This document shows, piece after piece, positions 18,701 to 30,693 of a stretch of DNA of 64,000 bases. The DNA is taken from the IMG/VR virus record IMGVR_UViG_3300034101_005931, positions 1-64,000 of that record; one strand, written 5' to 3'. Numbering within the stretch: the first letter of the stretch is position 1; every line of letters begins with the position of its first letter. The translations under genes and the position numbers were made by a program. The notes beneath the pieces were generated by a model. The model was not told where the DNA came from. It worked only from the letters and a program-made list of their open reading frames with translations, and made no database searches. This DNA comes from a virus.

Positions 18701-19280
18701 ACTTAAACATCTTTTAGGAGATATTGTCAAGCAATGTGTTGACAATAATATAGAGCTTAAGCTTGTGCCAAAAGATCACGTATTGGTGGATCACAATATT
18801 AAATGCTCAGGTTATTTCGACGACACATCACTTGTAGTGGCATCTGGTAAGAAAGATTGGGTCGATGTTTTAATTCACGAGTCTTGTCATCTTGATCAAT
18901 TTATAGGTAAATCAAAAATATATGATAAAGGTGGCAGGGGTATTATTATTATTGATGAATGGCTCGGCGGTAAAAACATTAATAAAACTAGATTGTATAA
19001 ATCGTTTCAAGATTCTATTTTAATGGAATTAGACTGCGAAAAGCGAACAGTTAAAAAGATCAAAAAATATAAAATTAATATAAACATTACAAAATATATA
19101 CAACAGGTTAACGCCTATCTTTTAAGCTATTGGGCTACATATCAAAATCGCAAATGGTACCCGTTCCCGTATAACAACCCCCGTATTGTAAAAAATATGC
19201 CTAAAGTCTTTTTACAGCCTAAAGAATACCTTGCACCTCATGAGGTGTACCTTAAATTCTTTAATGAAAAAGGTTCTTAA
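18657..19280 (+). CDS. Putative zinc metalloprotease-like protein
   Basis: LIHESCH (HExxH) with downstream ELDCE. Confidence 0.55.
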   Translation: MNETYSFSHKRSMTKLKHLLGDIVKQCVDNNIELKLVPKDHVLVDHNIKCSGYFDDTSLVVASGKKDWVDVLIHESCHLDQFIGKSKIYDKGGRGIIIIDEWLGGKNINKTRLYKSFQDSILMELDCEKRTVKKIKKYKININITKYIQQVNAYLLSYWATYQNRKWYPFPYNNPRIVKNMPKVFLQPKEYLAPHEVYLKFFNEKGS

Positions 19281-19533
19281 GCCATTCTTAGAAGAAGACG
19301 CTGTATACTATTCTGATTTTAGCGGTAAGTTAATTGACCCCTTATATCGAGCATCACCGTGTGAAGTGACCCTAGAGTTTAATTACGGATCTAAGTACGA
19401 CGGAGAAAAAATAACTCTACACTTAACAGATGATGAAAGTGAAGATTTATTAGTGTATTTAAATTCAAAACTCATTCAGGAAACCAAAAATGAACTAAAT
19501 AAGTTTTATGGAGAAAAAAAGGCGGTGATGTAA
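19231..19533 (+). CDS. Hypothetical protein (true start probably 19264)
   Basis: FNYGSKYDG motif; coupled to neighbours. Confidence 0.6.
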   Translation: MHLMRCTLNSLMKKVLKPFLEEDAVYYSDFSGKLIDPLYRASPCEVTLEFNYGSKYDGEKITLHLTDDESEDLLVYLNSKLIQETKNELNKFYGEKKAVM

Positions 19534-19746
19534 ATGATTGAGTCTTTTTTTATTGCTTCAGTAATAATTTTTATTGTATGTTTTGTGATAGGTGTAATTG
19601 TTTCTATGATATATGGGGATAACGTCGAAAAATATTTTAAAAGCTATGATGTTTTAATTAATATTATGACTTGGTCAATATTCACTACAATACCTACAGG
19701 TCTTTTTGTCTTAGTAAAGAAGTTTTTTATTGATTTTCTTTCATGA
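19534..19746 (+). CDS. Small two-TM membrane protein
   Basis: Two hydrophobic segments. Confidence 0.55.
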   Translation: MIESFFIASVIIFIVCFVIGVIVSMIYGDNVEKYFKSYDVLINIMTWSIFTTIPTGLFVLVKKFFIDFLS

Positions 19747-19770
19747 AGCATTTATTATAAATATCAACAC

Positions 19771-20088
19771 ATGGAAAAATATAAAAAGATATTAGAAAAG
19801 AAAGAGCTCTATATTCAGTTTTCTGATGAAGAGATGTCTGAAATTGGGTGGGAAGAGGGTCAAAAGCTATCCTTATCTTTCGATAAGGTTACAGGGTCCA
19901 TTTTTTTAAAACCATATGTTAAAGTGGATGTTGATATGTCAGAATGGTCAAGAGAGGTACTGGAGTATATTGTTGGTGTTTCCTGTGAGAAAGACATTTC
20001 ATGCAACCAAGTCATCGAAGATGTGTTAAAAGACACAATTAAAACACGCGACACACTTAATAAAAAGGAAGAACTACTCTGTGAATAA
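19771..20088 (+). CDS. AbrB/MazE-like DNA-binding protein
   Basis: LYIQFSDEEMSEIGWEEGQKLSL swapped-hairpin pattern. Confidence 0.6.
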   Translation: MEKYKKILEKKELYIQFSDEEMSEIGWEEGQKLSLSFDKVTGSIFLKPYVKVDVDMSEWSREVLEYIVGVSCEKDISCNQVIEDVLKDTIKTRDTLNKKEELLCE

Positions 20089-20232
20089 TAATATAAACAC
20101 TATACTTTTTGTAATACTATCAATTTTAATAATACAACTTATGGTTCTATTTTCAAATGAAATACGCTTTTCAAGACTAGAACAAAAAATTGATCAATAT
20201 TTCGCCCCGATTGATGACGTTGACTTACCTAA

Positions 20233-20886
20233 GTGGGAGGAGCAACAGTAATGGGAATGTTTGATACTATCTTTGTTAAAAAGAAACTACCCTTAACTAA
20301 GGAGCTTAAAGCTCTTAATGTTAAATGGGAAGAAGAACCTTTTCAAACAAAGGACCTGGAAAGTCTCATGGAAACATATGAGATTACTAAAACGGGAAAG
20401 CTAAACTATCTATGGCAAGAGAGAGTATGGAAGGATGATGATGGTGCTTTTCTAAAAGGCTATATGGATGTGGCAAAGGAAGAGTGGAGGAAAGTTGACT
20501 TTCACGGCACTATTAATTTTTATACATCATATTGTGATAATGATGGTTATAACTGGGATTGGGTTAGTGATGACCCGGAGCAAATGACTTGGGATGATAT
20601 CGAACTCATTCAAGGCTATGATTGGTGGATAGAATTTGAAGCTTATTTTACACACGGAAATTTAGATGAAATAAAACTTATAAAAGTAACTAAGGATCCG
20701 ATAAGCGAAAGAATTAAAAACAACAAAATCTGGGCTGAAAAAAGGGCTGTGGAAAACAAAAAAATTTCAAGAAAGATTGTTGGCTTCTTAAGAAAATTTG
20801 CTTGCTATCGTTATGTAATTCGTTTATTATTAAGAATAGTCAATAAGACATATTCATGCTTAACTAAAGCATTATATAGACTGTGA
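20233..20886 (+). CDS. Conserved phage hypothetical protein (true start probably 20251)
   Basis: MGMFD...FQTKDL...FHGTINFY...W.EF.A.F..G. Confidence 0.7.
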   Translation: MGGATVMGMFDTIFVKKKLPLTKELKALNVKWEEEPFQTKDLESLMETYEITKTGKLNYLWQERVWKDDDGAFLKGYMDVAKEEWRKVDFHGTINFYTSYCDNDGYNWDWVSDDPEQMTWDDIELIQGYDWWIEFEAYFTHGNLDEIKLIKVTKDPISERIKNNKIWAEKRAVENKKISRKIVGFLRKFACYRYVIRLLLRIVNKTYSCLTKALYRL

Positions 20887-21023
20887 AAACAAAAAATAAA
20901 ATTATTCAGAAGACGTATGCAGTTCCTGGCGGCCAATACCAGACAGCTAAAAATGTTCGTCAGTTCTATAACAAAAACACTCGAGCACAACGCTCTGATG
21001 CAGGCGGAAAAAGAAAGCCATAA
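20883..21023 (+). CDS. Small basic protein (46 aa, GTG start)
   Basis: Manual translation MKTKNKIIQKTYAVPGGQYQTAKNVRQFYNKNTRAQRSDAGGKRKP; GTGA overlap with upstream stop. Confidence 0.55.
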   Translation: MKTKNKIIQKTYAVPGGQYQTAKNVRQFYNKNTRAQRSDAGGKRKP

Positions 21024-21028
21024 AATAC

Positions 21029-21059
21029 TTGCACTTTACCATAGGTTCCTTTATAAATA
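21029..21059 (+). promoter_or_regulatory. Promoter of the tRNA operon (sigma70-like overlapping late TATAAATA)
   Basis: TTGCAC-N17-TATAAA(TA). Confidence 0.65.
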
Positions 21060-21076
21060 TATATATACATTCAAAA

Positions 21077-21220
21077 ATGAAACTTCATACAGATACACGC
21101 GGAACAAGTTGTCCGAGCCCAATTACAGGCTCATGGACAACCTTTGTCTTCTAAGCGGGTATTATATAGAATTTTCTTGATAAGCCCGCTGAACTCAATA
21201 AAATGAGCAGCGGGTTTCAA
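21077..21220 (+). promoter_or_regulatory. Candidate leader peptide plus attenuator-like alternative hairpins
   Basis: 25-codon ORF 21077-21154; GCCCGCT (21184-90) can pair with AGCGGGT at 21154-60 or at 21209-15. Confidence 0.5.
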
Positions 21221-21320
21221 TTTAAAAGGCTTTTTGGGAGATGAGCCTGAATCATCGAAACAACCACCTTGAATCCGTGGGTATATGAAATATATAGAGG
21301 TGTAGATCTTTATAAAAAGC

Positions 21321-21392
21321 GCGAGTGTAGCATAATGGTAATGCACTTCGTTGCCAACGAAGGTACTGTCGGTTCGAGCCCGATCACTCGCT
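21321..21392 (+). tRNA. tRNA-Gly(GCC)
   Basis: Cloverleaf; CTTCG-TT-GCC-AA-CGAAG; no encoded CCA. Confidence 0.95.
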
Positions 21393-21465
21393 TTTTAAAA
21401 TTTTACAGTCCCGGGACAATCCCTCTCCTGCTAATGTAGTGACGGATCCCGGGTAAGATTTTAAT

Positions 21466-21548
21466 GCCAGTGTGGCTCAGCGGCGACAGCACCGCTTTTG
21501 TAAAGCGGTATACAAACAACGGGGGTTCGAGTCCCTCCACTGGCCCCA
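21466..21548 (+). tRNA. tRNA-Thr(UGU), 12-nt variable region
   Basis: CCGCT-TT-TGT-AA-AGCGG; CCA encoded. Confidence 0.9.
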
Positions 21549-21555
21549 TTTTTTT

Positions 21556-21630
21556 GCATCGGAAGCTAAACGGCTAGGCAATGGTCTGCAAAACCTTTAT
21601 TAGTCAGTTCGACTCTGACCCGATGCTCCA
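21556..21630 (+). tRNA. tRNA-Cys(GCA)
   Basis: GCATCGG/CCGATGC acceptor, U73, CCA. Confidence 0.9.
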
Positions 21631-21673
21631 TTTTTTTATTTGCAAATAGCAAATATTCGTATAATATGAATTT

Positions 21674-21880
21674 ATGTATACGACAAGATTATCATTCAAA
21701 GGCAATAATATGGAAGTTGGTATCAAAACCCTTTGGACCAACGATGGTGAAGATCATTATGATTTAGAAATTCGTTCAAAGAAAAGAATCTCTGGTCATG
21801 ACTTTCAAGCTTTAAGAAACTATCTTCAAGAAGAAGGTTATATTGAAGCAGCACGAGAATGGAATAAAAATCTTGTTTAA
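21674..21880 (+). CDS. Hypothetical protein within tRNA array
   Basis: Follows TTGCAA..TATAAT promoter-like sequence. Confidence 0.65.
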   Translation: MYTTRLSFKGNNMEVGIKTLWTNDGEDHYDLEIRSKKRISGHDFQALRNYLQEEGYIEAAREWNKNLV

Positions 21881-21881
21881 C

Positions 21882-22217
21882 GATCTGGCCGTAGTGGTTT
21901 CCAGATCAGGGTGGAATCTCTTTGCCTGTTAGTGTGTTAGGAGACCCATCTGTGCTAGACGAGCTAGGCTACATAAAGCTACGACTCTATGCATTTAGTT
22001 TAACACAGGCTGAGGACGGAAGTACTGGCTCCATGCCGGGCTCCGTTGAGGAAGGGACAATTCCTAGGACAAAACCCTTCACATACTAAATATTTTAGTA
22101 GACCCGGGACGCCTCTCGATGATGTCGATGCGCACCGTTCGGGTGATCTAGCGTGATAACAAAGCCAGTACACATTAAGTTGGGACGCCTTCGGTTTCTG
22201 GTACAAAAACACGCCCT
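21882..22217 (+). ncRNA. Unidentified structured RNA (~335 nt) abutting tRNA-Ile
   Basis: No credible ORF; stems GATCTGG/CCAGATC, AGGGTG/CGCCCT, GCCTGT/ACAGGC, GTACTGGCT/AGCCAGTAC, CCGGG/CCCGG, GAAGGG/CCCTTC, TACTAAA/TTTAGTA. Confidence 0.7.
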
Positions 22218-22219
22218 TT

Positions 22220-22293
22220 CCCTCCTTAGTTCAGTAGTAGAACGGTTCTTTGATAAGGAACAGAGCATGGGGCGGTACCATGAGGAGGGACCA
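22220..22293 (+). tRNA. tRNA-Ile(GAU), non-canonical T-loop
   Basis: GTTCT-TT-GAT-AA-GGAAC; T-loop GGCGGTA; CCA. Confidence 0.85.
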
Positions 22294-22298
22294 TTTTA

Positions 22299-22389
22299 GG
22301 GCAGATAGCTGAGTTGGTCTAAGGCGCCCGACTTGAAATCGGAAGTGGGGGAAACTTCACCATGGGTTCGAATCTTACTCTGCCCGCCA
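22299..22389 (+). tRNA. tRNA-Ser(UGA)
   Basis: Long variable arm, G73, CCA. Confidence 0.9.
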
Positions 22390-22397
22390 TTTTAACC

Positions 22398-22469
22398 GCC
22401 CTTGTAGTTCTAATAGCAAAACAGTTCCTTGGTAAGGATCGGTAGACGGAGCGTAACCGTCCTGGGGCT
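22398..22469 (+). tRNA. tRNA-Thr(GGU), non-canonical T-loop
   Basis: GTTCC-TT-GGT-AA-GGATC; T-loop AGCGTAA. Confidence 0.8.
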
Positions 22470-22485
22470 TTTAAATAATTTTAAC

Positions 22486-22558
22486 TGCGGGTTAGAACTC
22501 TGGTGAGTTCAGGTGTCTCATAAGCATCTATAGGAGGATTCGATTTCCTCACCCGCTA
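22486..22558 (+). tRNA. tRNA-Met(CAU), initiator-like
   Basis: CAT anticodon, U1xU72 mismatch and A11-U24; lacks the three G-C anticodon-stem pairs. Confidence 0.85.
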
Positions 22559-22566
22559 TTCTTTAT

Positions 22567-22650
22567 ATGTCCGCTCACAAGTGGGATTGTACAGAGTCTC
22601 CAAAACTCTCGTCGTTTGACTAAGGGGTTCGATTCCTCACGGACATGCCA
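22567..22650 (+). tRNA. tRNA-Trp(CCA) with paired variable arm
   Basis: AGAGT-CT-CCA-AA-ACTCT; variable arm GTC-GTTT-GAC; G73, CCA. Confidence 0.8.
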
Positions 22651-22654
22651 TTTA

Positions 22655-22725
22655 GCCGCAGTAACATAAAAGTAATGTGTTAGTCTTCCAAACTAAAGAA
22701 CTCGGGGCAGTACCGTGCTGCGGCA
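22655..22725 (+). tRNA. tRNA-Gly(UCC), non-canonical T-loop
   Basis: TTAGT-CT-TCC-AA-ACTAA; T-loop GGCAGTA. Confidence 0.85.
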
Positions 22726-22732
22726 TATTTCG

Positions 22733-22804
22733 GGAGTTGTAGCTCAGAGGAAGAGCAGTTGGCTTTTAACCAATTGGCCGTGGGTTCGACCCCCACCGAC
22801 TCCA
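22733..22804 (+). tRNA. tRNA-Lys(UUU)
   Basis: GTTGG-CT-TTT-AA-CCAAT. Confidence 0.95.
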
Positions 22805-22809
22805 CTTAT

Positions 22810-22883
22810 GGTTCGTTAGTATAATAGCAGTACACTAGATTGTCACTCTAGTAGCAGGGGAGCATAACCCCTACGAACCGCCA
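22810..22883 (+). tRNA. tRNA-Asp(GUC), non-canonical T-loop
   Basis: CTAGA-TT-GTC-AC-TCTAG; T-loop AGCATAA; G73, CCA. Confidence 0.9.
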
Positions 22884-22887
22884 TTTC

Positions 22888-22959
22888 GGATCCTTGGTGA
22901 AATGGATATCACGTAACGCTACGGACGTTAAATTCTGAGTTCGACCCTTGGAGGATCCA
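22888..22959 (+). tRNA. tRNA-Arg(ACG)
   Basis: TAACG-CT-ACG-GA-CGTTA. Confidence 0.92.
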
Positions 22960-22970
22960 TAAGTATTTTT

Positions 22971-23360
22971 ATGAAGTGGTGGCCTACTATACTAGTAGCA
23001 GTGGGTTTGTTTTTTTATTTTGAATATTATTCAGTTCGTGTGCCACTTAAATATGAAATGCTGAATGACGGCTGTCTAATACAATCTTTATATTTTCAAC
23101 AAGTTATACAAGCTCAGCAAATATTAGATGAATACATGTGGACAAGAGTTCTTGCAATTCAATTTTATGGAATAATAGAAGGACATGCTGTAACTGTTTT
23201 TGTCTATAAAAATATAACGTGGGTTTATGATCCTAATCGCGGATCTTTCCCTGTAGCGCACTTTTCACTTTATAACCCATTAATGATCGCGGAACTTGCT
23301 TTTCCAAAACTTTCAATAAAAAAAGCATACTATATTGAACCAACATTATTATTGCATTAA
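22971..23360 (+). CDS. Membrane-anchored protein, possible transglutaminase/papain-like Cys-His-Asp fold
   Basis: N-terminal TM; NDGCL...GHAVTVF...WVYDPNRGS. Confidence 0.5.
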   Translation: MKWWPTILVAVGLFFYFEYYSVRVPLKYEMLNDGCLIQSLYFQQVIQAQQILDEYMWTRVLAIQFYGIIEGHAVTVFVYKNITWVYDPNRGSFPVAHFSLYNPLMIAELAFPKLSIKKAYYIEPTLLLH

Positions 23361-23386
23361 CTGAAGAAATCCTCTATTATATAGCA

Positions 23387-24256
23387 ATGAAACGTCTCAT
23401 TATAGATGGCAACAATCTTGTTCATAGAACTTTTTGGGTTGCTAAAAACCAGCCAATTTATAACGAGCACTTCCACATTCATCTTTTTTTGACGAGTGTT
23501 AAAAAATACGTAGCTAAGTATCAGCCTAACGTAACCTACTGTGCATGGGACGAGAAAGCAGACTATCAAGTTAATAAGCGCAAAGCTTTGCTTGAAGGCT
23601 ATAAAGGTAATCGTGATCAGGAACGCAATAAAGATGTTCATACAAAGAATTACATTATTAAAGAGATGCTTGGTTATCTCGGTATTAATAGCGTGTGTCC
23701 CTATGCATATGAAGCAGATGATGTGATTGCTATCTTTTGTAATGAATACAAGGACGATCAAAAAGTCATTATTACTGTCGACAGAGACCTTTGTCAACTT
23801 ATTGATAAGAATACAGTAGTTTTTGATCCGATTCGTAAAGTAGAATTTAATTTAGCAAACTTCGAAGAAGTATTAAAATGTAAAAAGGAGCACTTCGTAA
23901 AAATTAAAGCTCTGCAAGGTGACAAATCTGATAACGTTCCAGGCATTAAAGGCTTTGGAAAAGTTAAGATAGAAAAATATTTGGCCGGTGAAGTCGAAAT
24001 GAGTGCAGAAGAGCTAGCTCAATATGCACATAATCTTTTATTATTAGATTTGAGAAACACTCTGCAAGATGAAACAGAATGTTCTTATGTAAAAGAACAG
24101 TTTAAACAACCAGTTGAATTCAAATTTAGTCAGTTTAAAAAGAGATGTGAGGAGTTAGGGTTTCATCAGATTTTAAAGAATATAAATCAATGGTATGATT
24201 TGTTCTTTTTAAGAAGTGATCAAATCCGTACACTTACGGATTTTCTAAAATTTTAG
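23387..24256 (+). CDS. 5'-3' exonuclease / T4 RNase H-like (FEN family)
   Basis: IIDGNN, YKGNR, YEADDVIA, DRDLCQL, GDKSDNVPGIKGFG. Confidence 0.92.
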   Translation: MKRLIIDGNNLVHRTFWVAKNQPIYNEHFHIHLFLTSVKKYVAKYQPNVTYCAWDEKADYQVNKRKALLEGYKGNRDQERNKDVHTKNYIIKEMLGYLGINSVCPYAYEADDVIAIFCNEYKDDQKVIITVDRDLCQLIDKNTVVFDPIRKVEFNLANFEEVLKCKKEHFVKIKALQGDKSDNVPGIKGFGKVKIEKYLAGEVEMSAEELAQYAHNLLLLDLRNTLQDETECSYVKEQFKQPVEFKFSQFKKRCEELGFHQILKNINQWYDLFFLRSDQIRTLTDFLKF

Positions 24257-24279
24257 ATAAATATATAAAACACTTTAAA

Positions 24280-24354
24280 CGGGCAGTCGCCTAGTGGCCA
24301 TGGCACCTGCTTTGGGAGCAGGAATGACCGGAGGTTCGAGTCCTCTCTGCCCGA
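24280..24354 (+). tRNA. tRNA-Pro(UGG)
   Basis: CCTGC-TT-TGG-GA-GCAGG; C1-G72, A73. Confidence 0.92.
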
Positions 24355-24374
24355 TACTTTATCTCCCGATATTA

Positions 24375-24449
24375 CGCTGCTTAGCTGAGATAGATTAGCA
24401 CGAGTCTGAAGAACTTGATAGGTTGGAGCGTTACCAACAGCAGCGGCCA
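24375..24449 (+). tRNA. tRNA-Phe(GAA), non-canonical T-loop
   Basis: CGAGT-CT-GAA-GA-ACTTG; T-loop AGCGTTA; CCA. Confidence 0.85.
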
Positions 24450-24457
24450 CTTTAAAT

Positions 24458-24533
24458 GTTGCTCGTAGTGTAACGGTTAGCATTACAGGTTGTGATCCTG
24501 TCAGAGCGGGTTCGAACCCCGTCGAGCAACCCA
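24458..24533 (+). tRNA. tRNA-His(GUG)
   Basis: G-1:C73 pair, ACAGG-TT-GTG-AT-CCTGT, CCA. Confidence 0.95.
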
Positions 24534-24570
24534 ATATTGAATTTTATAAAAGATACAATATACTTGTGAT

Positions 24571-25302
24571 ATGATTGACGTTGGTATTTTAGGTTACGGT
24601 GAAATAGGACAAGCGCTAAGCGAATTCTATAAAGATAAACCTTTTAACCTTAAGATAAAAGACAAAAATAGTGTAGAACAGCTCGGTGAGCTAGTAATAC
24701 TTAACGTCTGTATACCCTACAATAATGATTTTTTAGATATTGTTTATGAACAAATTCAAACATCAAAGCCTATCATTACGATAATTCATTCAACGGTTCT
24801 TCCTGGTACAACAAAACGATTACAGATGTTAAGCCCGAACAAGTTTGTTATTCATAGCCCTGTAAGAGGCATTCATCCTTATCTTTATGACTCACTTAAA
24901 CGGTTTGTTAAATATATTGGAAGTGATACGGAGGACGGTTATCAATTGGCTTATGCACATTTAAAATTTTTAGGTTTTAAATGTGAGCGTATGAAGAATT
25001 CTTTTGCTACTGAACTCTCAAAACTTCTTTGCACAACATATTACGGAGTATGTATAGCATGGCATGATCTAGTTAAAAAGCTTTGTGATAGACATAGCTT
25101 AGAATACGTTAACGTATCAACAGATTGGAATGTTTCATACAATGAGGGTTATAAAGAACTAGGTATGAGCCATTTTACACGGCCAGTGTTATATCCACCA
25201 GAAGGTAAAATAGGTGGTCACTGTGTTGTACCTAATGCTGAACTTTTAGAAAATTTAATTGATAGTTCTTTGATAGAGGAAGTTTTAAAATTTAAAAAAT
25301 AG
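24571..25302 (+). CDS. UDP-glucose/GDP-mannose dehydrogenase-like protein (short form)
   Basis: GILGYGEIG, HSTVLPGTT, TELSKL, IGGHCV. Confidence 0.8.
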   Translation: MIDVGILGYGEIGQALSEFYKDKPFNLKIKDKNSVEQLGELVILNVCIPYNNDFLDIVYEQIQTSKPIITIIHSTVLPGTTKRLQMLSPNKFVIHSPVRGIHPYLYDSLKRFVKYIGSDTEDGYQLAYAHLKFLGFKCERMKNSFATELSKLLCTTYYGVCIAWHDLVKKLCDRHSLEYVNVSTDWNVSYNEGYKELGMSHFTRPVLYPPEGKIGGHCVVPNAELLENLIDSSLIEEVLKFKK

Positions 25303-25339
25303 TTGCAGTTTATAAGACATGTAGTAGAATAAAGATTCT

Positions 25340-25447
25340 ATGAAATACATCATCCTATCATTATTCCTTATGCTCGGTGTTACTGCATGTGCATCTAAAA
25401 AACAATGCACTCCATGCAATAAAACTGTTGTTTGTAAGGTTAAATAA
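25340..25447 (+). CDS. Small lipoprotein (35 aa)
   Basis: MKYIILSLFLMLGVTA-CASKKQCTPCNKTVVCKVK; lipobox VTAC; below ORF-track cutoff. Confidence 0.65.
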   Translation: MKYIILSLFLMLGVTACASKKQCTPCNKTVVCKVK

Positions 25448-25453
25448 TACAAC

Positions 25454-25535
25454 GGGTTAATCTTGTAAATGGTGCCGACATTTCCACATACGAGTGGTAG
25501 AGATTAGTCCTGAGACGTCGCGGGTAAACGTCTCA
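25454..25535 (+). ncRNA. Unidentified small structured RNA upstream of tRNA-Ala
   Basis: Three-way junction closed by GGGTTAATCT/AGATTAGTCC plus adjacent hairpin TGAGACG/CGTCTCA. Confidence 0.5.
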
Positions 25536-25541
25536 CTTTTC

Positions 25542-25612
25542 GGGGAATTAGTTAAGTGGTATAACTCCTGATTTGCATTCAGGTGTCACCAGTTCGACTC
25601 TGGTATTCTCCA
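25542..25612 (+). tRNA. tRNA-Ala(UGC)
   Basis: G3-U70; CCTGA-TT-TGC-AT-TCAGG. Confidence 0.95.
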
Positions 25613-25620
25613 TATTTTTG

Positions 25621-25703
25621 GCCGAAGTGGCGAAATTGGCGATACGCGACAGACTTAGGATCTGTTGGGGTAACCCGTGTAGGTTCGAGTCCTATCTTCG
25701 GCA
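25621..25703 (+). tRNA. tRNA-Leu(UAG)
   Basis: Long variable arm, A73; ACAGA-CT-TAG-GA-TCTGT. Confidence 0.93.
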
Positions 25704-25709
25704 TATTTA

Positions 25710-25800
25710 GGAACGGTGGCTGAGCGGCTTAAAGCAAGTCTTTGCTAAAGACTCGAGGGCTTAAAATCCTCCGCAGGTTCAAATCCTGCTCGTTCCGCCA
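25710..25800 (+). tRNA. tRNA-Ser(GCU)
   Basis: Long variable arm, G73, CCA. Confidence 0.95.
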
Positions 25801-25811
25801 TAAGTATTAAT

Positions 25812-26597
25812 ATGCTAAAAGAAGGCTATAACCCATACACCTCAAATCCTTTAGAGGGTATTGATTTTGCAAAAGTTTGTTATTTTGATACGGAAACAAC
25901 CGGTCTAAGACCATCAGATGCTCAAATTGTAGAAATAGCTGCTGTAAGAGGAAATGATCAGTTTTATGAAAAAATAGAACTCACTAACGATACAAAGCAA
26001 TTAATTGCTCAACAGGCTCAGAACTTCGAACGTAAAAACAAATATGATAAATCAATTGACGAACTTCTTCAAATGACAAATTACTATGATACAAAAGCTA
26101 AAACCACAGCAACAGAAGAAGAGGCGTTAAGAAAATTTAAAGAATTTGCAGAACAATCACAATATCTTCTGGCACATAATGCTTCATATGATATGAAAAT
26201 GGTTAATTCTAGAATGAAACGGTATGGTATTCAAACTATTAAAAACATACCTGTTCTCGATTCATTAGCATTTTCTCGGAGATTTTTTGTTCCGCTATTA
26301 CGCTCACAAGAAGAAGAAGGATCACAAGAAGCAAAACAGTTGCTTGATCAATTAACTTCTAGCTACAAAAAAGACGGTCAGAGAAAAACTGTTCAAAGTA
26401 ATCTCGGTGCTCTCTCAAAAGCTCTTTTCAATCAAATTGATAATTGGCATCAAGCGCTTGACGATGTATTAACTACAAAAAAGCTGGTTGAACAAGGCCT
26501 TGCTCTATATATGAGCAAATACAAAGAAGCACCATCTACACCATCTTTTAAAAAGTACTATGCAATGAATAAAAGAGCCGAAAACAGATATAAATAA
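25812..26597 (+). CDS. DEDDh 3'-5' exonuclease (DnaQ-like)
   Basis: FDTETTGL, AHNASYD, WHQALDDV. Confidence 0.9.
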   Translation: MLKEGYNPYTSNPLEGIDFAKVCYFDTETTGLRPSDAQIVEIAAVRGNDQFYEKIELTNDTKQLIAQQAQNFERKNKYDKSIDELLQMTNYYDTKAKTTATEEEALRKFKEFAEQSQYLLAHNASYDMKMVNSRMKRYGIQTIKNIPVLDSLAFSRRFFVPLLRSQEEEGSQEAKQLLDQLTSSYKKDGQRKTVQSNLGALSKALFNQIDNWHQALDDVLTTKKLVEQGLALYMSKYKEAPSTPSFKKYYAMNKRAENRYK

Positions 26598-26603
26598 TTA
26601 TAT

Positions 26604-26834
26604 ATGTTTCCTGTTCAACCTCAGCATTATACGCATGCTTTCATAGATACTGATCATTATACTTCTGATCAAAGTATGAAGAAAGCTATCGATAAGGTAT
26701 TATCGGAACTAAAAACTGATCCACCCCAATTTTTAGCTATTCTACCAGACGGTACATCTAAAAGCTTTGACAAGTATGATGATGCTATAGCGTTTCTTTC
26801 TATTAATCCTCACTGTAAAGTGTTTGTTAAGTAA
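26604..26834 (+). CDS. Hypothetical protein
   Basis: ORF directly behind TATAAATA. Confidence 0.6.
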   Translation: MFPVQPQHYTHAFIDTDHYTSDQSMKKAIDKVLSELKTDPPQFLAILPDGTSKSFDKYDDAIAFLSINPHCKVFVK

Positions 26835-26846
26835 TTAAATATTATT

Positions 26847-27680
26847 ATGGTCTCTTTCAAAGAGTTTATAGTAGAAGTTCACGCCAAGCTTGGTGGTATT
26901 TATGAAAAAGATATTCAAGCCAAATTAAGCCGTGCAGGTTTAGCTCCTGCAAATTTACAAACAGCTGGTGCAGGTCACGGTGCTGACGCTCAAATGTATA
27001 CCAAAAGTGGTAAACCATATGGTGTAGAGGTAAAGTTGAGTCCTAATGTTTTTGCAGGTCAAAAAAATATTAGATATAACGTTAAAAACGGTTCATGGAG
27101 CTGGCCGAGTAAGCAGGACGATCTTACAGCATTTTACGATGAAATTGGTTTAATTGATAATATTGTACTACCACAAGTCCAATCCGAGGTGGCTGCAAAG
27201 CTTAAAATGTTTAATGCTTGGTTTAAAAAAAGAAATATCAAATACACAGCTACTGAATTTCCCTTAACACTTACCAATCTTCAGTATACTTTGTTTAGAC
27301 AAGATAACCCTTCTTATAAACCTGAACTGGGAACTTTTGACTCGAGTGTGGATGCTATTTTTGCGAACTATACAGCTAAAAAAGTATTTTATGTTCAAAT
27401 AGGCACTCCTGCAGGTGGCTTTTATTATTTGGAAAAAGACCCATTGGGGTTGGCAAAGTATGGTGTGCCGCAGTTTAACCCAGATGTGGTGAGAGTAAGA
27501 ACAAGATTAAAATGGGGTGGATCAACTCTCGATAGTACGGAGCTTCGCAGCCCAAAAGCAAAATTATCATCAACCGTTTCTTTTAATACAGGTTTAATTA
27601 TTAGTGGTCTCGAACCTTCACCAGTTTCTATTGATAGAGATCTTACATTCCTTAAAAAAGGATTAGGTTACATAAAGTGA
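26847..27680 (+). CDS. Putative PD-(D/E)xK nuclease with head-targeting-like N-terminus
   Basis: YE...GADAQM...GVEVK; N-terminus MVSFKEFIVE. Confidence 0.6.
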   Translation: MVSFKEFIVEVHAKLGGIYEKDIQAKLSRAGLAPANLQTAGAGHGADAQMYTKSGKPYGVEVKLSPNVFAGQKNIRYNVKNGSWSWPSKQDDLTAFYDEIGLIDNIVLPQVQSEVAAKLKMFNAWFKKRNIKYTATEFPLTLTNLQYTLFRQDNPSYKPELGTFDSSVDAIFANYTAKKVFYVQIGTPAGGFYYLEKDPLGLAKYGVPQFNPDVVRVRTRLKWGGSTLDSTELRSPKAKLSSTVSFNTGLIISGLEPSPVSIDRDLTFLKKGLGYIK

Positions 27681-28183
27681 AAACATTTAAATCTTTTTAT
27701 ATAGAAGAAAAGAGTAAGCTTGATCAACTTCAAGCTGCTCTCGATGTTGCAGGATTTGAGCCTACCGTAGGTACAGGTGCAGATGCAGTTAACACAATAA
27801 TTTCTGGCCTTAGAGCTGCAGCAGCAAAAAATACCGATCAAAGAAAGGAGCATATAATTAATGCAGGCATTTCTGCAATATCTATGATTCCCTTTGCTGA
27901 TGTAATTAAGCTTTTAAAACTACGTAAATTAGGAAGACCTGCCACAAAAATAGCTGCAGGAGGAGCTCGTGGATTAAAAACATTTGGAAAACAACAACAA
28001 GCATCAAATAGATTTGGAATACAAGAAAAATCAATTCATGATCCTGTTCGTCCTGGTATTCTTAAGAGACAAGTTAAAGGTAAAATGACCTGTTCAAAGG
28101 CACGTACCTTAAAAGGTAAGCAAAAAAATAAAGGTAACAATACAGCTAAAGCAGCCCAGAGATTTTTGAACTATCATTGCTAA
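27677..28183 (+). CDS. Putative internal head protein
   Basis: N-terminus MKTFKSFYIEE; LDVAG...GADAVN...ISMIP segment; basic C-terminus. Confidence 0.55.
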   Translation: MKTFKSFYIEEKSKLDQLQAALDVAGFEPTVGTGADAVNTIISGLRAAAAKNTDQRKEHIINAGISAISMIPFADVIKLLKLRKLGRPATKIAAGGARGLKTFGKQQQASNRFGIQEKSIHDPVRPGILKRQVKGKMTCSKARTLKGKQKNKGNNTAKAAQRFLNYHC

Positions 28184-28194
28184 AATATTATAAC

Positions 28195-28282
28195 GGGTAG
28201 ATGGCAGAGCGGCTTATTGCATCGGTCTTGAAAACCGAAGAACAGAAATGTTCCGTGGGTTCAAATCCTACTCTACCCGCCA
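28195..28282 (+). tRNA. tRNA-Ser(UGA), second copy
   Basis: TCGGT-CT-TGA-AA-ACCGA; long variable arm; G73, CCA. Confidence 0.95.
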
Positions 28283-28794
28283 TTTTCATAAAAAATATTT
28301 GTACAACCTAAAACATACTCTATAGGATAACAACACTGTAATTCTATAGCTGTGTTTAAACTTGCGGTATTTTTAGCATTAATACCTACATAAAACGTTT
28401 TAATATTAGAGTTAAGTTTCATTAATTTATGAATAACAATTGTTGCTAGTCTCTTGTTACTATTTTTTATAAATTTCTTTTCTTTTAAGGCGAGTTTAAG
28501 AAGATTGGGTAATATGAAAATACTAAAAACATTATTTGTATCTATATAAACTGTGCCAACTGCAAATTCACCTAAACATATTCTATATATTTCTTTGTAA
28601 TTGTTCTTTTTTAGGTATTGAATGTGCTGCTCGTATGTAGGTGGTGTAGGTGGTGTTTTGTAGGTAATATTAACAGTTTCATGGAACCTCCATCTATATA
28701 AAACAACATCATAAAGAAATTTTTGATCTGTTTCGTTTAAGACATCAATTGACTTAAGTTTAATATCCTGCTCTTTATAATAACCAGTGGCCAT
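28273..28794 (-). CDS. GNAT-family N-acetyltransferase-like protein
   Basis: TYEQHIQY, AVGTVYI, INAKNTASL (PseH/RimJ-like). Confidence 0.6.
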   Translation of the reverse strand: MATGYYKEQDIKLKSIDVLNETDQKFLYDVVLYRWRFHETVNITYKTPPTPPTYEQHIQYLKKNNYKEIYRICLGEFAVGTVYIDTNNVFSIFILPNLLKLALKEKKFIKNSNKRLATIVIHKLMKLNSNIKTFYVGINAKNTASLNTAIELQCCYPIEYVLGCTNIFYENGG

Positions 28795-29608
28795 ATTCTT
28801 TCATTCTTTCAATTTTTGTATTATTCCGTCTCTCAATTCTTTCATTTGTCATTTTATACATCCACGTATTTTCCGATGTATTATAATGAATACAATAACA
28901 AATATTTCTTATATTATCCTGCACTTCTTTAACTTTCCAGATATTATAATTTGTAAATAGAAAAGAATTCAACCAACGCGATTTGATTTCTTTAAAGTGC
29001 TTTTGCATAACAGCTTGACCTACATCATTATCATCTATGCATAACGGATCTTTTCTAAGTTGATCTAAAAACTTTGGATACCAAGTAGGTGTTGCATAGA
29101 ATATTATAAAACCAAACCCGCCTTTTTCACGTGGAATTCCAGATGTCAACTCCTCATAAGACAAATCCATATAAGCTCCTATATCATATTTTTCAGTTAT
29201 TAATTTAGACAAACGATCAAAAGGTACCTTCAAAAATATCATATCAATATCCGAATGGATTACGTTAATATTATTTTCGCACGCAATGTGACCAATACAA
29301 TAGGCTTTACATATATGGTGCTTTTCTTTGTACGCTTTTCTGAGCAGAAACACTTCTTCATCTTCACTATTAACAAGTGTTTCTTGATCTACGTACATAC
29401 ATGTCATACCATGCTCTACGGCATACGTATATGCCGTAGCGTCTAGACAAACTACAATTACATTATCATTAATACCTAGTTTTTGCAGATGTTTATACCA
29501 GTTTAATAGTAATGTGCAAAACTCACCCGTAATAAATGTTAAAATTATATTTTTAGTATTTAAAGCTCTATCAACTTGATAAGAATTGACAATAAAATCT
29601 TTTAACAT
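28775..29608 (-). CDS. Nucleotide-diphospho-sugar transferase (GT-A, GT77-like)
   Basis: LLLNW...VVCLD, VIHSDIDMIFL (DxD), IHYN. Confidence 0.75.
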   Translation of the reverse strand: MLKDFIVNSYQVDRALNTKNIILTFITGEFCTLLLNWYKHLQKLGINDNVIVVCLDATAYTYAVEHGMTCMYVDQETLVNSEDEEVFLLRKAYKEKHHICKAYCIGHIACENNINVIHSDIDMIFLKVPFDRLSKLITEKYDIGAYMDLSYEELTSGIPREKGGFGFIIFYATPTWYPKFLDQLRKDPLCIDDNDVGQAVMQKHFKEIKSRWLNSFLFTNYNIWKVKEVQDNIRNICYCIHYNTSENTWMYKMTNERIERRNNTKIERMKEYGHWLL

Positions 29609-29632
29609 AAGGTCTATATTTTTAATTGTTTT

Positions 29633-29947
29633 TTGTTAATTATCAACTACTATATATATATGATTGAAATTATAAGAGAGGTATCGGGGCTCATCATGAT
29701 GATCTGTTTCATGTTATGCTACATACCACAAATATATAAGATTTACAAAAATAAGTCGTCAAATGATGTATCATTAATGCTGGTTATTATGTCATTAGGT
29801 GGCTACATTTCTGGAATGGTATATTTGTTTACTTCGACCTTTGGATTATGGTGGTTTATTAATTATTGTGTGGGAGTAGTTATGTGCTTGCTATTAATGC
29901 ATGCATGGTTTAAATTTAAAAAAGATAAAGAGTATGACTCTTACTAA
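29633..29947 (+). CDS. PQ-loop / SemiSWEET-like membrane protein (true start probably 29660)
   Basis: YIPQIYKIYKNKSSNDVS; three TM helices. Confidence 0.85.
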   Translation: MLIINYYIYMIEIIREVSGLIMMICFMLCYIPQIYKIYKNKSSNDVSLMLVIMSLGGYISGMVYLFTSTFGLWWFINYCVGVVMCLLLMHAWFKFKKDKEYDSY

Positions 29948-29963
29948 ATAAAAAAAATTATAT

Positions 29964-30037
29964 GGGGGGTTAGTTTATCGGTAAAACATACGGTTTACAT
30001 CCGTAGGTGAATGGTTCAACTCCATTACCCCCTACCA
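29964..30037 (+). tRNA. tRNA-Val(UAC)
   Basis: TACGG-TT-TAC-AT-CCGTA; CCA. Confidence 0.95.
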
Positions 30038-30043
30038 CTTTAA

Positions 30044-30418
30044 ATGAAAAAAGTAATAACAGTAGATTTTGATGAAACTCTGGTTGTGCCTTACCCTACA
30101 GCTTACGGTGGTTCAAGCTTACATATTGTACCTAAAATAGAAGAAATTATTCGCTATGAGCACAGTATAGGTACAGATGTATACATTGTGTCTTTCCGGA
30201 AAGAAAAAGATAGAGCTGAAATGGAGAGAGTAATAATGGTTAACAAATTGCCTATTAAAGGTATTATTTGCACTAACATGGAGCCTAAATTACCTTTCTT
30301 GAAGAAGTTAAATTCAAGACTACATATAGATGATGACTTTTTTACATGTCAAGAGGCTAAAAAAGCTGGTATTGATGTTCGTCTGGTTGATAAGCCTGGT
30401 AATCTTATCAAGTTGTAA
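30044..30418 (+). CDS. HAD-superfamily phosphatase
   Basis: VDFDETL, IVSFR, K, HIDDD motifs. Confidence 0.8.
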   Translation: MKKVITVDFDETLVVPYPTAYGGSSLHIVPKIEEIIRYEHSIGTDVYIVSFRKEKDRAEMERVIMVNKLPIKGIICTNMEPKLPFLKKLNSRLHIDDDFFTCQEAKKAGIDVRLVDKPGNLIKL

Positions 30419-30614
30419 AAGTCTAGATATTGCTGGAAATTACTCTTACACTAAAGAGGAAATATCTGAAAAACATCGTAATGAAATCGTTATGACTTAT
30501 AACGGTAATATTAATGGTATTCCTTATAAAGCAAAACAAAAAATAAACCACGACCCTTTGTATCCTGATAAACCGGCTTATTATGAAGCTTCATATGAGC
30601 TTTGGTTTTGGTAA
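30330..30614 (+). CDS. Putative lipoprotein
   Basis: Hydrophobic stretch then LSSC lipobox; ends in aromatic residues; start uncertain. Confidence 0.5.
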   Translation: MMTFLHVKRLKKLVLMFVWLISLVILSSCKSLDIAGNYSYTKEEISEKHRNEIVMTYNGNINGIPYKAKQKINHDPLYPDKPAYYEASYELWFW

Positions 30615-30693
30615 TTAAGACTTAAAAGCATAAAAGAGCACAAACCATATTGCGAATGCTAAAAAGTAATATATCACATAAGATATTTATTCG

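Follow-up and report, generated by a model that had tools for sequence, protein, structure and literature searches.

A putative ribosome-dependent attenuator ahead of a tRNA gene array in a lake-water phage

The 64,000-nt stretch of viral DNA analyzed here (the window, positions 1 to 64,000 of IMG/VR virus record IMGVR_UViG_3300034101_005931) covers the first 64 kb of that record, which is 86 kb long at an estimated completeness of 39% and whose source is a large lake-water phage with 36% GC. Positions 21029-21320 of its + strand lie directly ahead of an array of 16 transfer RNA (tRNA) genes that extends to position 30037, with tRNA-Gly(GCC) (21321-21392, + strand) as the first gene and tRNA-Thr(UGU) as the second. 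This leader comprises a predicted promoter (P1), a 25-codon open reading frame (ORF), a set of alternative RNA pairings that includes a terminator-like hairpin, and a conserved pseudoknotted RNA domain. Its anatomy, conservation, alternative pairings, frame and codon statistics and domain structure were computed from the sequence and its relatives, and on these grounds positions 21029-21320 are probably a ribosome-dependent attenuator, that is, the regulatory leader of the + strand tRNA array.

The arrangement is not confined to the window. Fourteen distinct elements were recovered, namely the window, eight close phage relatives, two divergent phage elements and three copies in contigs of Verrucomicrobiota metagenome-assembled genomes (loci are designated by L and a number), and all 14 have a short ORF, a stem-loop with a U tract and a stop-adjacent segment able to pair with the 5′ arm of the stem. 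Duplicates were left out of this count (L014, equal to L013; L026, equal to L025; and L073, equal to L072). L013 and L014 were found in metagenomes by synteny via the 217-aa protein encoded upstream of the leader, and their leaders are identical over 304 nt. A gapped pattern of the three repeats described below retrieved L021, L023, L025 (identical to L026 over the compared slice) and L028, and six of its 11 matches (L022, L024, L027, L029, L030 and L031) were GC-rich chance matches and were dropped. A pattern of the 3′ domain, independent of the switch, re-found all homologues obtained with the gapped pattern and contributed L033 and L034 as well as the divergent pair L032 and L036, with one of its 10 viral matches (L035) attributed to chance. 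The same pattern in bacterial genomes gave L043 and L047, both in Verrucomicrobiota contigs, the other 25 of 27 matches being dropped for want of AGAGGTG after the match. A covariance model yielded L070, a second copy in the genome that holds L047, and a degenerate pattern yielded L072 (identical to L073 over the compared slice). Exact patterns from three window stretches found nothing in viral contigs, a phage collection returned only tRNA-Thr look-alikes, and the family of the 46-aa protein encoded upstream, which has relatives (P0003-P0005), gave no viral loci.

Between the window and L013, DNA identity is 87% in the promoter region, 79% in the ORF, 87% in the switch and 86% in the 3′ domain, compared with 68% in the gene for the 217-aa protein and 65% in tRNA-Gly, so that the non-coding leader is the best-kept part of the locus. 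tRNA-Gly(GCC) and then tRNA-Thr(UGU) follow directly after all nine main-type elements (the window and its close relatives, L072 included). A spacer separates L036, L043 and L047 from the tRNA arrays behind them, L032 ends at a contig edge, and L070 has no tRNA within 1.5 kb. Variants from metagenomes were taken from contigs of four runs, in which no piece spans the whole stretch. One of them, record 7 of run X9 (a freshwater metagenome), is a divergent relative of which 53 nt align with window positions 21165-21217, and its flanks hold a TGA stop at region 2 (see below) and a GGUU/AAC version of the pseudoknot.

P1 (21029-21057, + strand) consists of a −35 hexamer TTGCAC (21029-21034), a 17-nt spacer and a −10 hexamer TATAAA (21052-21057), and its TTGC and ATAA are invariant in eight of eight close relatives, behind differing upstream genes. 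The presumed 5′ untranslated region (21065-21076, + strand) would be short and A-rich, without a Shine-Dalgarno sequence (ACAUUCAAAAA). Because a Shine-Dalgarno-like tetramer (GGAG, GAGG or AGGA at −18 to −4) precedes only nine of 56 long window ORFs, such a start is normal for this phage. Many window ORFs carry a −10-like (C/T)ATAA(A/G)TAT 8-15 nt before the ATG, which suggests that genes of this phage often have very short 5′ untranslated regions.

The leader ORF (21077-21154, + strand) has 25 codons and a TAA stop (21152-21154), the last A of which is the first base of region 2; its ATG, stop and peptide are as written in the preliminary description of the locus, which was made from the sequence of the window by itself. 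All 14 elements have a short ORF, of 23-25, 36 or 50-61 codons, that starts at a conserved ATG some 20 nt past the −10 box and lacks a Shine-Dalgarno sequence. The main-type ORFs share the same start and stop position (9/9) at 23, 24 or 25 codons (69, 72 or 75 nt), with GCGG invariably next to the stop. This stop is TAG in L013, via a 1-nt deletion, TGA at the same place in a divergent metagenome contig end, and TAA in the others. The ORF and its stop position, whose conservation in related phages the preliminary description had proposed to examine, thus recur in eight further close relatives. Differences in four independent close pairs fall 9/12/26 on codon positions 1/2/3 (chi-square p=0.005), and the two divergent phage ORFs (L032 and L036) both have 36 codons at only 40% nucleotide identity. 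The peptides have a partly conserved N-terminus, M-K/N-H-T-x-T, and a W-T motif.

Around and after the stop lie the segments that would form the switch. Region 2, the upstream strand of the putative antiterminator (21154-21166, + strand), holds AGCGGGU plus UUAU, and region 3, which the antiterminator and the terminator would share, lies at 21180-21191 (+ strand; AUAAGCCCGCUG). AGCGGGT occurs at 21154-21160 and again at 21209-21215, and GCCCGCT at 21184-21190, so the two copies that the preliminary description had seen as competitors for one partner are in place, and the alternative pairings recur in relatives. The CCCGCU of region 3 is invariant in nine of nine main-type elements. The terminator-like hairpin and its tail (21182-21225, + strand) consist of a hairpin at 21182-21217, followed by UUUCAAUUUAA. 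The stem AAGCCCGCUG/CAGCGGGUUU with its inner CUCA/UGAG extension (10-bp outer stem, 2-nt bulge, 4-bp inner stem, 6-nt loop) appears in predicted folds at −18.8 kcal/mol, and the imperfect U tail previously ascribed to it reads UUUCAAUUU. Hairpins at homologous positions in all 14 elements range from −13.7 to −22.4 kcal/mol. The RNA of 21065-21320 as a whole has a fold z score of −4.9, with none of 200 shuffles as stable. The other hairpin predicted early on, hairpin 1 within the ORF (21108-21141, + strand; GUUGUCCGAGCC/GGCUCAUGGACAAC), also forms in predicted folds; across eight relatives 84% of its cells are paired, three of its eight pairs show two-sided changes and four are broken, and it is possibly a pause hairpin.

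The pairing between regions 2 and 3 is tied to the stop codon. The best upstream partner of the window 5′ arm spans +1 to +14 from the stop (−14.2 kcal/mol; 11 of 500 shuffles as good), and in every element except L033 (13 of 14) no upstream segment pairs better with the 5′ arm than the stop-adjacent one, which lies within 14 nt of the stop. In these 13 the duplex of regions 2 and 3 has −11.1 to −18.0 kcal/mol, and in 12 of them 0-31 of 500 shuffles do as well. The best partner of main-type elements, L072 included, runs from about the first nucleotide of the stop to 9-14 nt downstream, and that of the other lineages lies just before the stop (ending 0-5 nt upstream) or across it. Of 11 phage elements, 10 pair regions 2 and 3 when the nascent RNA is folded without the 3′ arm, and so do all three Verrucomicrobiota elements. 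With a ribosome-sized mask over the stop region, a constraint that the preliminary description had suggested for folding, all 11 elements tested take the terminator as their lowest-energy fold.

Within the main group of eight elements, nine of 12 terminator pairs never vary and one inner pair changes from U-A to C-G; with the terminator almost invariant among close relatives, the covariation argument rests on the comparison between lineages, where four unrelated stem sequences carry the same plan. The main group has AGCGGGU, RCCCGCUG and CAGCGGGU as its switch. L072 has kept the antiterminator (−17.1 kcal/mol; one of 500 shuffles as good) and lost the second AGCGGGT, and its terminator is a new 9-bp stem (−14.0 kcal/mol) that has only CGCU in common with region 3 and is followed by U8. 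Folded freely, L072 takes the antiterminator as its lowest-energy structure, and masking of the stop region is needed for the terminator to form. Judged by these folds, L072 is the most telling case, since the second repeat is gone and a predicted competition remains. L032 and L036 have the stem GACCUUGGC/GCCAAGGU with U5-7 and a region 2 just before the stop, with duplexes of −17.2 kcal/mol (0 of 500 shuffles as good) and −13.3 kcal/mol (13 of 500), respectively. The Verrucomicrobiota stem is CCCUGCUUAC/GUAAGCAGGG with U6, and the ORFs of these copies (50-61 codons) have GGCAGG or AAGCAGG 0-3 nt ahead of the stop. The tract after the stem is U5 to U8 throughout L032, L036, L072 and the Verrucomicrobiota copies. 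Both pairings are thus conserved in eight further close relatives, and the three-part design of the leader extends to L072, to L032 and L036 and to the three Verrucomicrobiota copies.

The latter (L043:4100-4640; L047:2460-2950, − strand; L070:1440-1990, − strand) lie in loci of 59% GC. Two of them stand ahead of tRNA arrays that contain low-scoring tRNAs, the terminator and the 3′ domain are about 190 nt apart, and another terminator-like hairpin with a U tract follows the domain. The contigs may be prophage or binning contamination, which limits the argument from lineages. The domain was rejected as a general feature of Verrucomicrobiota, as two of 151 sampled genomes matched it, one being the source genome itself and the other a weak match (E=2.7e-4).

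The codons of the leader ORF match the array that follows it. The 16 tRNAs of the downstream array can read 17 of the 24 codons after the ATG, by exact pairing or standard wobble, compared with 41.9% of codons in 57 long ORFs (P=0.004), and codons that only the − strand array can read, expected at 25%, are absent from the 24. The other two frames hold four and seven codons of 24 readable by the + strand array, and nine and nine readable only by the − strand array; the match is frame-specific and therefore not a by-product of base composition. Threonine makes up 16-26% of the eight main-group peptides tested, compared with 7.0% of the proteome, and two ACA codons stand near the start of most of the nine main-type ORFs (L013 and L072 keep only one each). 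ACA is the commonest Thr codon of the phage and is read by the second tRNA of the array. As the leader is written mostly in codons that the array tRNAs read, the supply of these tRNAs would be the likely signal, and it is quite conceivable, at somewhat less than an even chance, that the tRNAs of the array itself are what is gauged. A link between induction of the array and anticodon nucleases, as raised in the preliminary description, is purely speculative.

Between the terminator and the first tRNA lies the conserved 3′ RNA domain (21226-21303, + strand). Its pseudoknot pairs GGC (21228-21230) with GCC (21245-21247), in general form an upstream GGY with RCC in the loop of stem Pa. Pa pairs 21240-21244 with 21252-21256 around the loop GCCUGAA (NCCUGAA across elements), stem Pc pairs CCAC (21264-21267) with GUGG (21277-21280), and the variable hairpin Pd (21282-21296) leads into AGAGGUG (21296-21302). 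The alignment of 14 sequences has 99.0% of cells paired, compared with 31-46% when partners are slid, and eight of 15 pairs have changed on both sides; Pc of L070, for instance, is CCGC/GCGG in place of CCAC/GUGG. AGAGGTG follows the Pc anchor in every element, and three of its columns are only nearly invariant in alignment A6 because L072 is shifted there by two columns. Three earlier structural calls were given up: the long-range closing helix of the first single-sequence fold, replaced by the local Pc and Pd; a "Hairpin 3" (GGCU/AGCC), better read as the pseudoknot with the Pa loop; and a helix Pb (UUUC/GAAA), only 80% paired and without two-sided change. No Rfam family matches the domain, which accompanies the putative attenuator in all lineages recovered; it may act in processive antitermination or in processing. 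A U/A-rich tract with a weak likeness to boxA (21305-21316, + strand; GAUCUUUAUAAA) stands just before the tRNA, and it is GUUCUUU in L072 and the Verrucomicrobiota copies. A gene-free stretch of about 430 nt between the 3′ domain and the tRNA array of L036 (L036:13360-13787) has no Rfam match and may be another structured RNA.

Transcription from P1, translation of the ORF, termination, the direction of the switch and the signal sensed are what we infer from this anatomy. RNA started at P1 would carry the 25-codon leader ORF, without a Shine-Dalgarno sequence, in its first ~90 nt, and then the switch, made up of region 2 (from the last base of the stop on), region 3 (the 5′ arm of the hairpin) and region 4 (the 3′ arm, followed by the U tract). 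As the RNA emerges, region 2 would pair with region 3 first, the terminator would be blocked and the polymerase would enter the tRNA genes, whereas a ribosome at the stop would cover region 2, so that regions 3 and 4 would pair and transcription would stop. With region 2 masked by the ribosome in this way, fast decoding of the leader would shut the array and slow or absent decoding would open it, and sensing of the tRNA supply of its own array would amount to negative feedback. As no convincing pairing of an upstream region 1 with region 2 was found, the untranslated default would be read-through. Read-through RNA would carry the pseudoknotted domain ending in AGAGGUG and the U/A-rich tract, which might aid the polymerase through the long untranslated array or guide processing at the first tRNA. 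The translation-sensing logic of the preliminary description is thus supported by comparison, in that the ORF, the stop position and both pairings recur and the masked-stop folds give the terminator.

Several observations weigh against an attenuator of this kind. The leader peptides are poorly conserved, the codon test covers the window only, and the window ORF has no run of one regulatory codon. An open frame persists after shuffling with P of 0.41-0.64 for main-group elements and of 0.12-0.17 for the divergent pair, so that openness by itself is weak evidence; frame +2 is likewise stop-free in the main group, and the Verrucomicrobiota ORF pair L043-L047 has 14/14/17 differences without a third-position excess. 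The main group, the window included, has a short and broken U tract (UUU or UUUU, then A or C), and no covariation of the terminator is seen within the eight close relatives. Region 2 of L033 is mismatched (AGCGGUU), region 3 of L034 takes another partner in the nascent fold, and 461 of 500 shuffles are as good as the L047 duplex. A mask at codons 6-7 makes the antiterminator the lowest-energy fold in only two of 10 elements (L013 and L032), so the switch would need to choose kinetically. In six of eight main-group elements, a trp-like 1:2 pairing, taken as the best duplex of region 2 with the first 42 nt of the ORF plus 10 nt upstream, does no better than shuffles. A simple sigma-70 scan did not list the promoter that the preliminary description had placed at 21029-59 (its −35 hexamer has three of six matches), nor were promoter-like or terminator-like sites in excess in 19000-31000 by the same scan; the hexamers themselves are at the positions given, conserved in eight of eight relatives, and the call of P1 therefore rests on conservation. 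The boxA-like sequence once noted before the first tRNA is likewise present as a tract, and it is weak and varies among relatives; GATCTTTAT does not stand out in a window with 17 occurrences of GNTCTTTAW where 9.3 are expected. Finally, a possible second promoter, P2, is kept in seven of nine main-type elements.

P2 (21177-21204, + strand; TTGATA, 16 nt, TAAAAT), with 10 of 12 matches, lies inside the terminator hairpin and invites a reading at the level of DNA, in which P1 and P2 in tandem would drive the array, much as in two-promoter rRNA and tRNA operons, CCCGCTG...CAGCGGG and the third AGCGGGT would be half-sites of a dimeric repressor, and the presence of the ORF would be incidental. 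P2, both hexamers of which are kept in the seven elements just mentioned with the first as TTGATA or TTGCAA, would then have the conserved loop AAUAAAAU as its −10 element, and G21184A in metagenome variants, which turns the inverted repeat into a perfect palindrome, suits RNA no less than a DNA operator. Among published cases the nearest is the Anabaena trn operon, which is repressed at the promoter according to the available parts of its two reports (PMC8421152, PMC10272220). Read from the alignments, however, P2 is broken in L033 and absent from L072, L032, L036 and the three Verrucomicrobiota copies, and all of these keep the ORF, the U-tract hairpin and the stop-adjacent complement. L072, moreover, keeps regions 2 and 3 and has lost the second AGCGGGT, so that a three-site operator fails there, and repression would leave unexplained the conservation of the frame, the third-position excess and the frame-specific codon match, as well as the U tracts that follow the stem in every lineage. 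We hold this reading to be improbable; P2 may exist alongside the switch, yet it cannot explain the statistics of the ORF.

About equally improbable is a structured non-coding leader or stable RNA, a 255-nt leader freed by RNase P at tRNA-Gly, with the ORF and the alternative pairing as by-products. The tRNA cluster of phage T4 yields small stable RNAs, to which such a product could be likened. The strong fold of the window RNA, the clear covariation in the 3′ domain and the stop-free frame +2 of the main group would suit it, as would a 5′-3′ closing helix of UACAUU with GGUGUA suggested by RNAalifold, although this helix is invariant, which leaves no test by variation, and is not seen in the divergent group. 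Several synonymous changes in the ORF break pairs of hairpin 1 (CCG to CCA in L013, AGT to AGC in run X9), the frame survives changes of length, and only one frame has codons that match the array; a structured RNA is compatible with the attenuator reading for the 3′ domain and not for the 5′ half. Least probable of the three is an ordinary small gene with its own terminator, encoding a functional micropeptide, with the 3′ domain and the tRNAs as a separate transcription unit, for although the order of promoter, ORF, hairpin and U tract, the third-position excess, the partly conserved N-terminus with its W-T motif and the ~190-nt gap between terminator and domain in the Verrucomicrobiota copies would all fit it, the peptides diverge strongly (10 of 14 changed codons between L025 and L028 are nonsynonymous, and L032 and L036 share length at the low identity given above), no separate promoter is conserved between terminator and tRNA across all lineages, and the match of the codons to the downstream array and the 5′-arm complement next to the stop, present in 13 of 14 elements in four different sequences, go unexplained. 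The last two features, a stop-adjacent complement across four stem sequences and a codon match in one frame, are where both this and the structural explanation fail.

The principle on which the proposed attenuator would work, ribosome-mediated attenuation, is established (PMC1183508, in its available part). As in the attenuators of the trp, his, thr, leu, phe and ilv amino-acid operons of enterobacteria, a short ORF lies between promoter and genes, the 5′ arm of a terminator-like hairpin can pair alternatively with an upstream segment that a ribosome at the end of the ORF would cover, and slow decoding would favor read-through. Unlike in those operons, the genes regulated would be tRNAs and not biosynthetic enzymes, the leader has a mixed sample of codons read by the array, with an excess of Thr, in place of a codon run, and there is no convincing 1:2 pairing, no Shine-Dalgarno sequence, a very short 5′ untranslated region, a pseudoknotted domain after the switch and no match to Rfam leaders. 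Rfam families gave no match in 21024-21320 at E<=1, those of the Trp, His, Thr, Leu and Phe leaders included, and the leader families were also unmatched on the leaders of L021, L028, L032 and L036 at E<=0.1. T-box leaders share with the element a terminator/antiterminator switch responsive to the state of tRNA, but they bind tRNA directly and need no ORF, whereas here the ribosome would be the sensor; no T-box was matched by Rfam in 20000-31000 at E<=1.

The antitermination systems of rrn operons (boxA and Nus factors) and of lambda nut resemble the distal part of the leader, where a hairpin (Pd) and then a single-stranded U-rich tract precede untranslated stable-RNA genes. To our knowledge, rrn leaders have no counterpart of AGAGGUG, of the Pc hairpin or of the pseudoknot. 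The BoxA 12-mer of A. aeolicus is GGCUCCUUGGCA, from which that of E. coli differs at positions 1, 6 and 9 (PMC3177189, available part); GUUCUUU of the L072 and Verrucomicrobiota versions resembles it, whereas GAUCUUUAU in the window and GGUUCAUAA in most relatives match in part only and vary. The long tRNA array of the trn operon of Anabaena sp. PCC 7120 is induced under translational stress (PMC8421152, available part) and is thus likewise an accessory array switched on when translation is impaired, with the difference that control there is at the promoter, as far as the available text goes, and here a leader ORF with a terminator and an antiterminator is proposed. Within the available parts of these reports, "attenuat" is absent from both PMC8421152 and PMC10272220, "leader" from the former and "leader peptide" from the latter. 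No published attenuation of tRNA operons was found in literature covered mostly outside subscription journals, so that leader-peptide attenuation of tRNA genes, of a kind known for amino-acid operons, is, as far as we found, unpublished.

Genes for tRNAs in phages are usually viewed as passive cargo, kept for codon-usage compensation or to counter tRNA-cutting defences. If the attenuator reading is true, the phage would gauge decoding speed through the ribosome and make tRNAs on demand, and a classic mechanism would extend from amino-acid operons to stable-RNA genes. A broader reading, which we think rather unlikely when its two stages are taken jointly, is a self-contained two-stage controller of accessory tRNAs that moves between phages and bacteria. 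The first stage would be the leader ORF as a miniature codon sample, including the conserved Thr ACA, in which a tRNA shortage, such as might arise from codon usage at odds with that of the host or from its anticodon nucleases, would stall the ribosome and open the array. The second would be the 3′ domain, with AGAGGUG and the U-rich tract, as a new cis-acting RNA that makes the polymerase termination-resistant or protects it from Rho over several kb of untranslated, hairpin-rich tRNA genes, in the way of a put-like or boxA-like processive antiterminator. The domain constitutes in any case a separate, uncatalogued RNA motif with strong covariation, found in low-GC lake phages and in the 59%-GC loci of Verrucomicrobiota contigs. 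As the element is compact, has mutable parts and exists in 14 natural variants with four stem solutions, it is directly testable with reporters and in vitro.

Upstream of the leader lie the genes for the 217-aa protein (20233-20886), which is without a Pfam match, and for the 46-aa protein (20883-21023). The covariance model R1 found one copy of the domain per phage record, the 86-kb record included, and nothing of the kind was seen before the − strand tRNA array. The region was also considered as a transfer-messenger RNA (tmRNA) or a remnant of one, and this was rejected, as ARAGORN and Rfam find none in this region of the window and the sequences show no relationship. In L002 (4660-4888) and L009 (~1035-1258), the slot behind the gene homologous to that of the 217-aa protein, a slot that has the tRNA leader in the window, holds what appears to be the 5′ part of a tmRNA, with a GGGG start and a tag-like frame ending in LLAA or LAA before the stop; both contigs end inside the element, and ARAGORN reported no tmRNA in this slot. 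Upstream of the divergent leader in L032, Rfam matched a tmRNA on the − strand (580-660; 62.3 bits, E=2.6e-22) over 81 nt only. An abiF RNA match just below the gathering score (35.3 compared with 37 bits) lies inside the tRNA array of L021 (1849-1884). The window as a whole has 23 tRNA genes by ARAGORN and three more by Rfam, these last at 22220-22290 (45.1 bits), 22655-22725 (46.9 bits) and, more weakly, 22398-22469 (28.1 bits).

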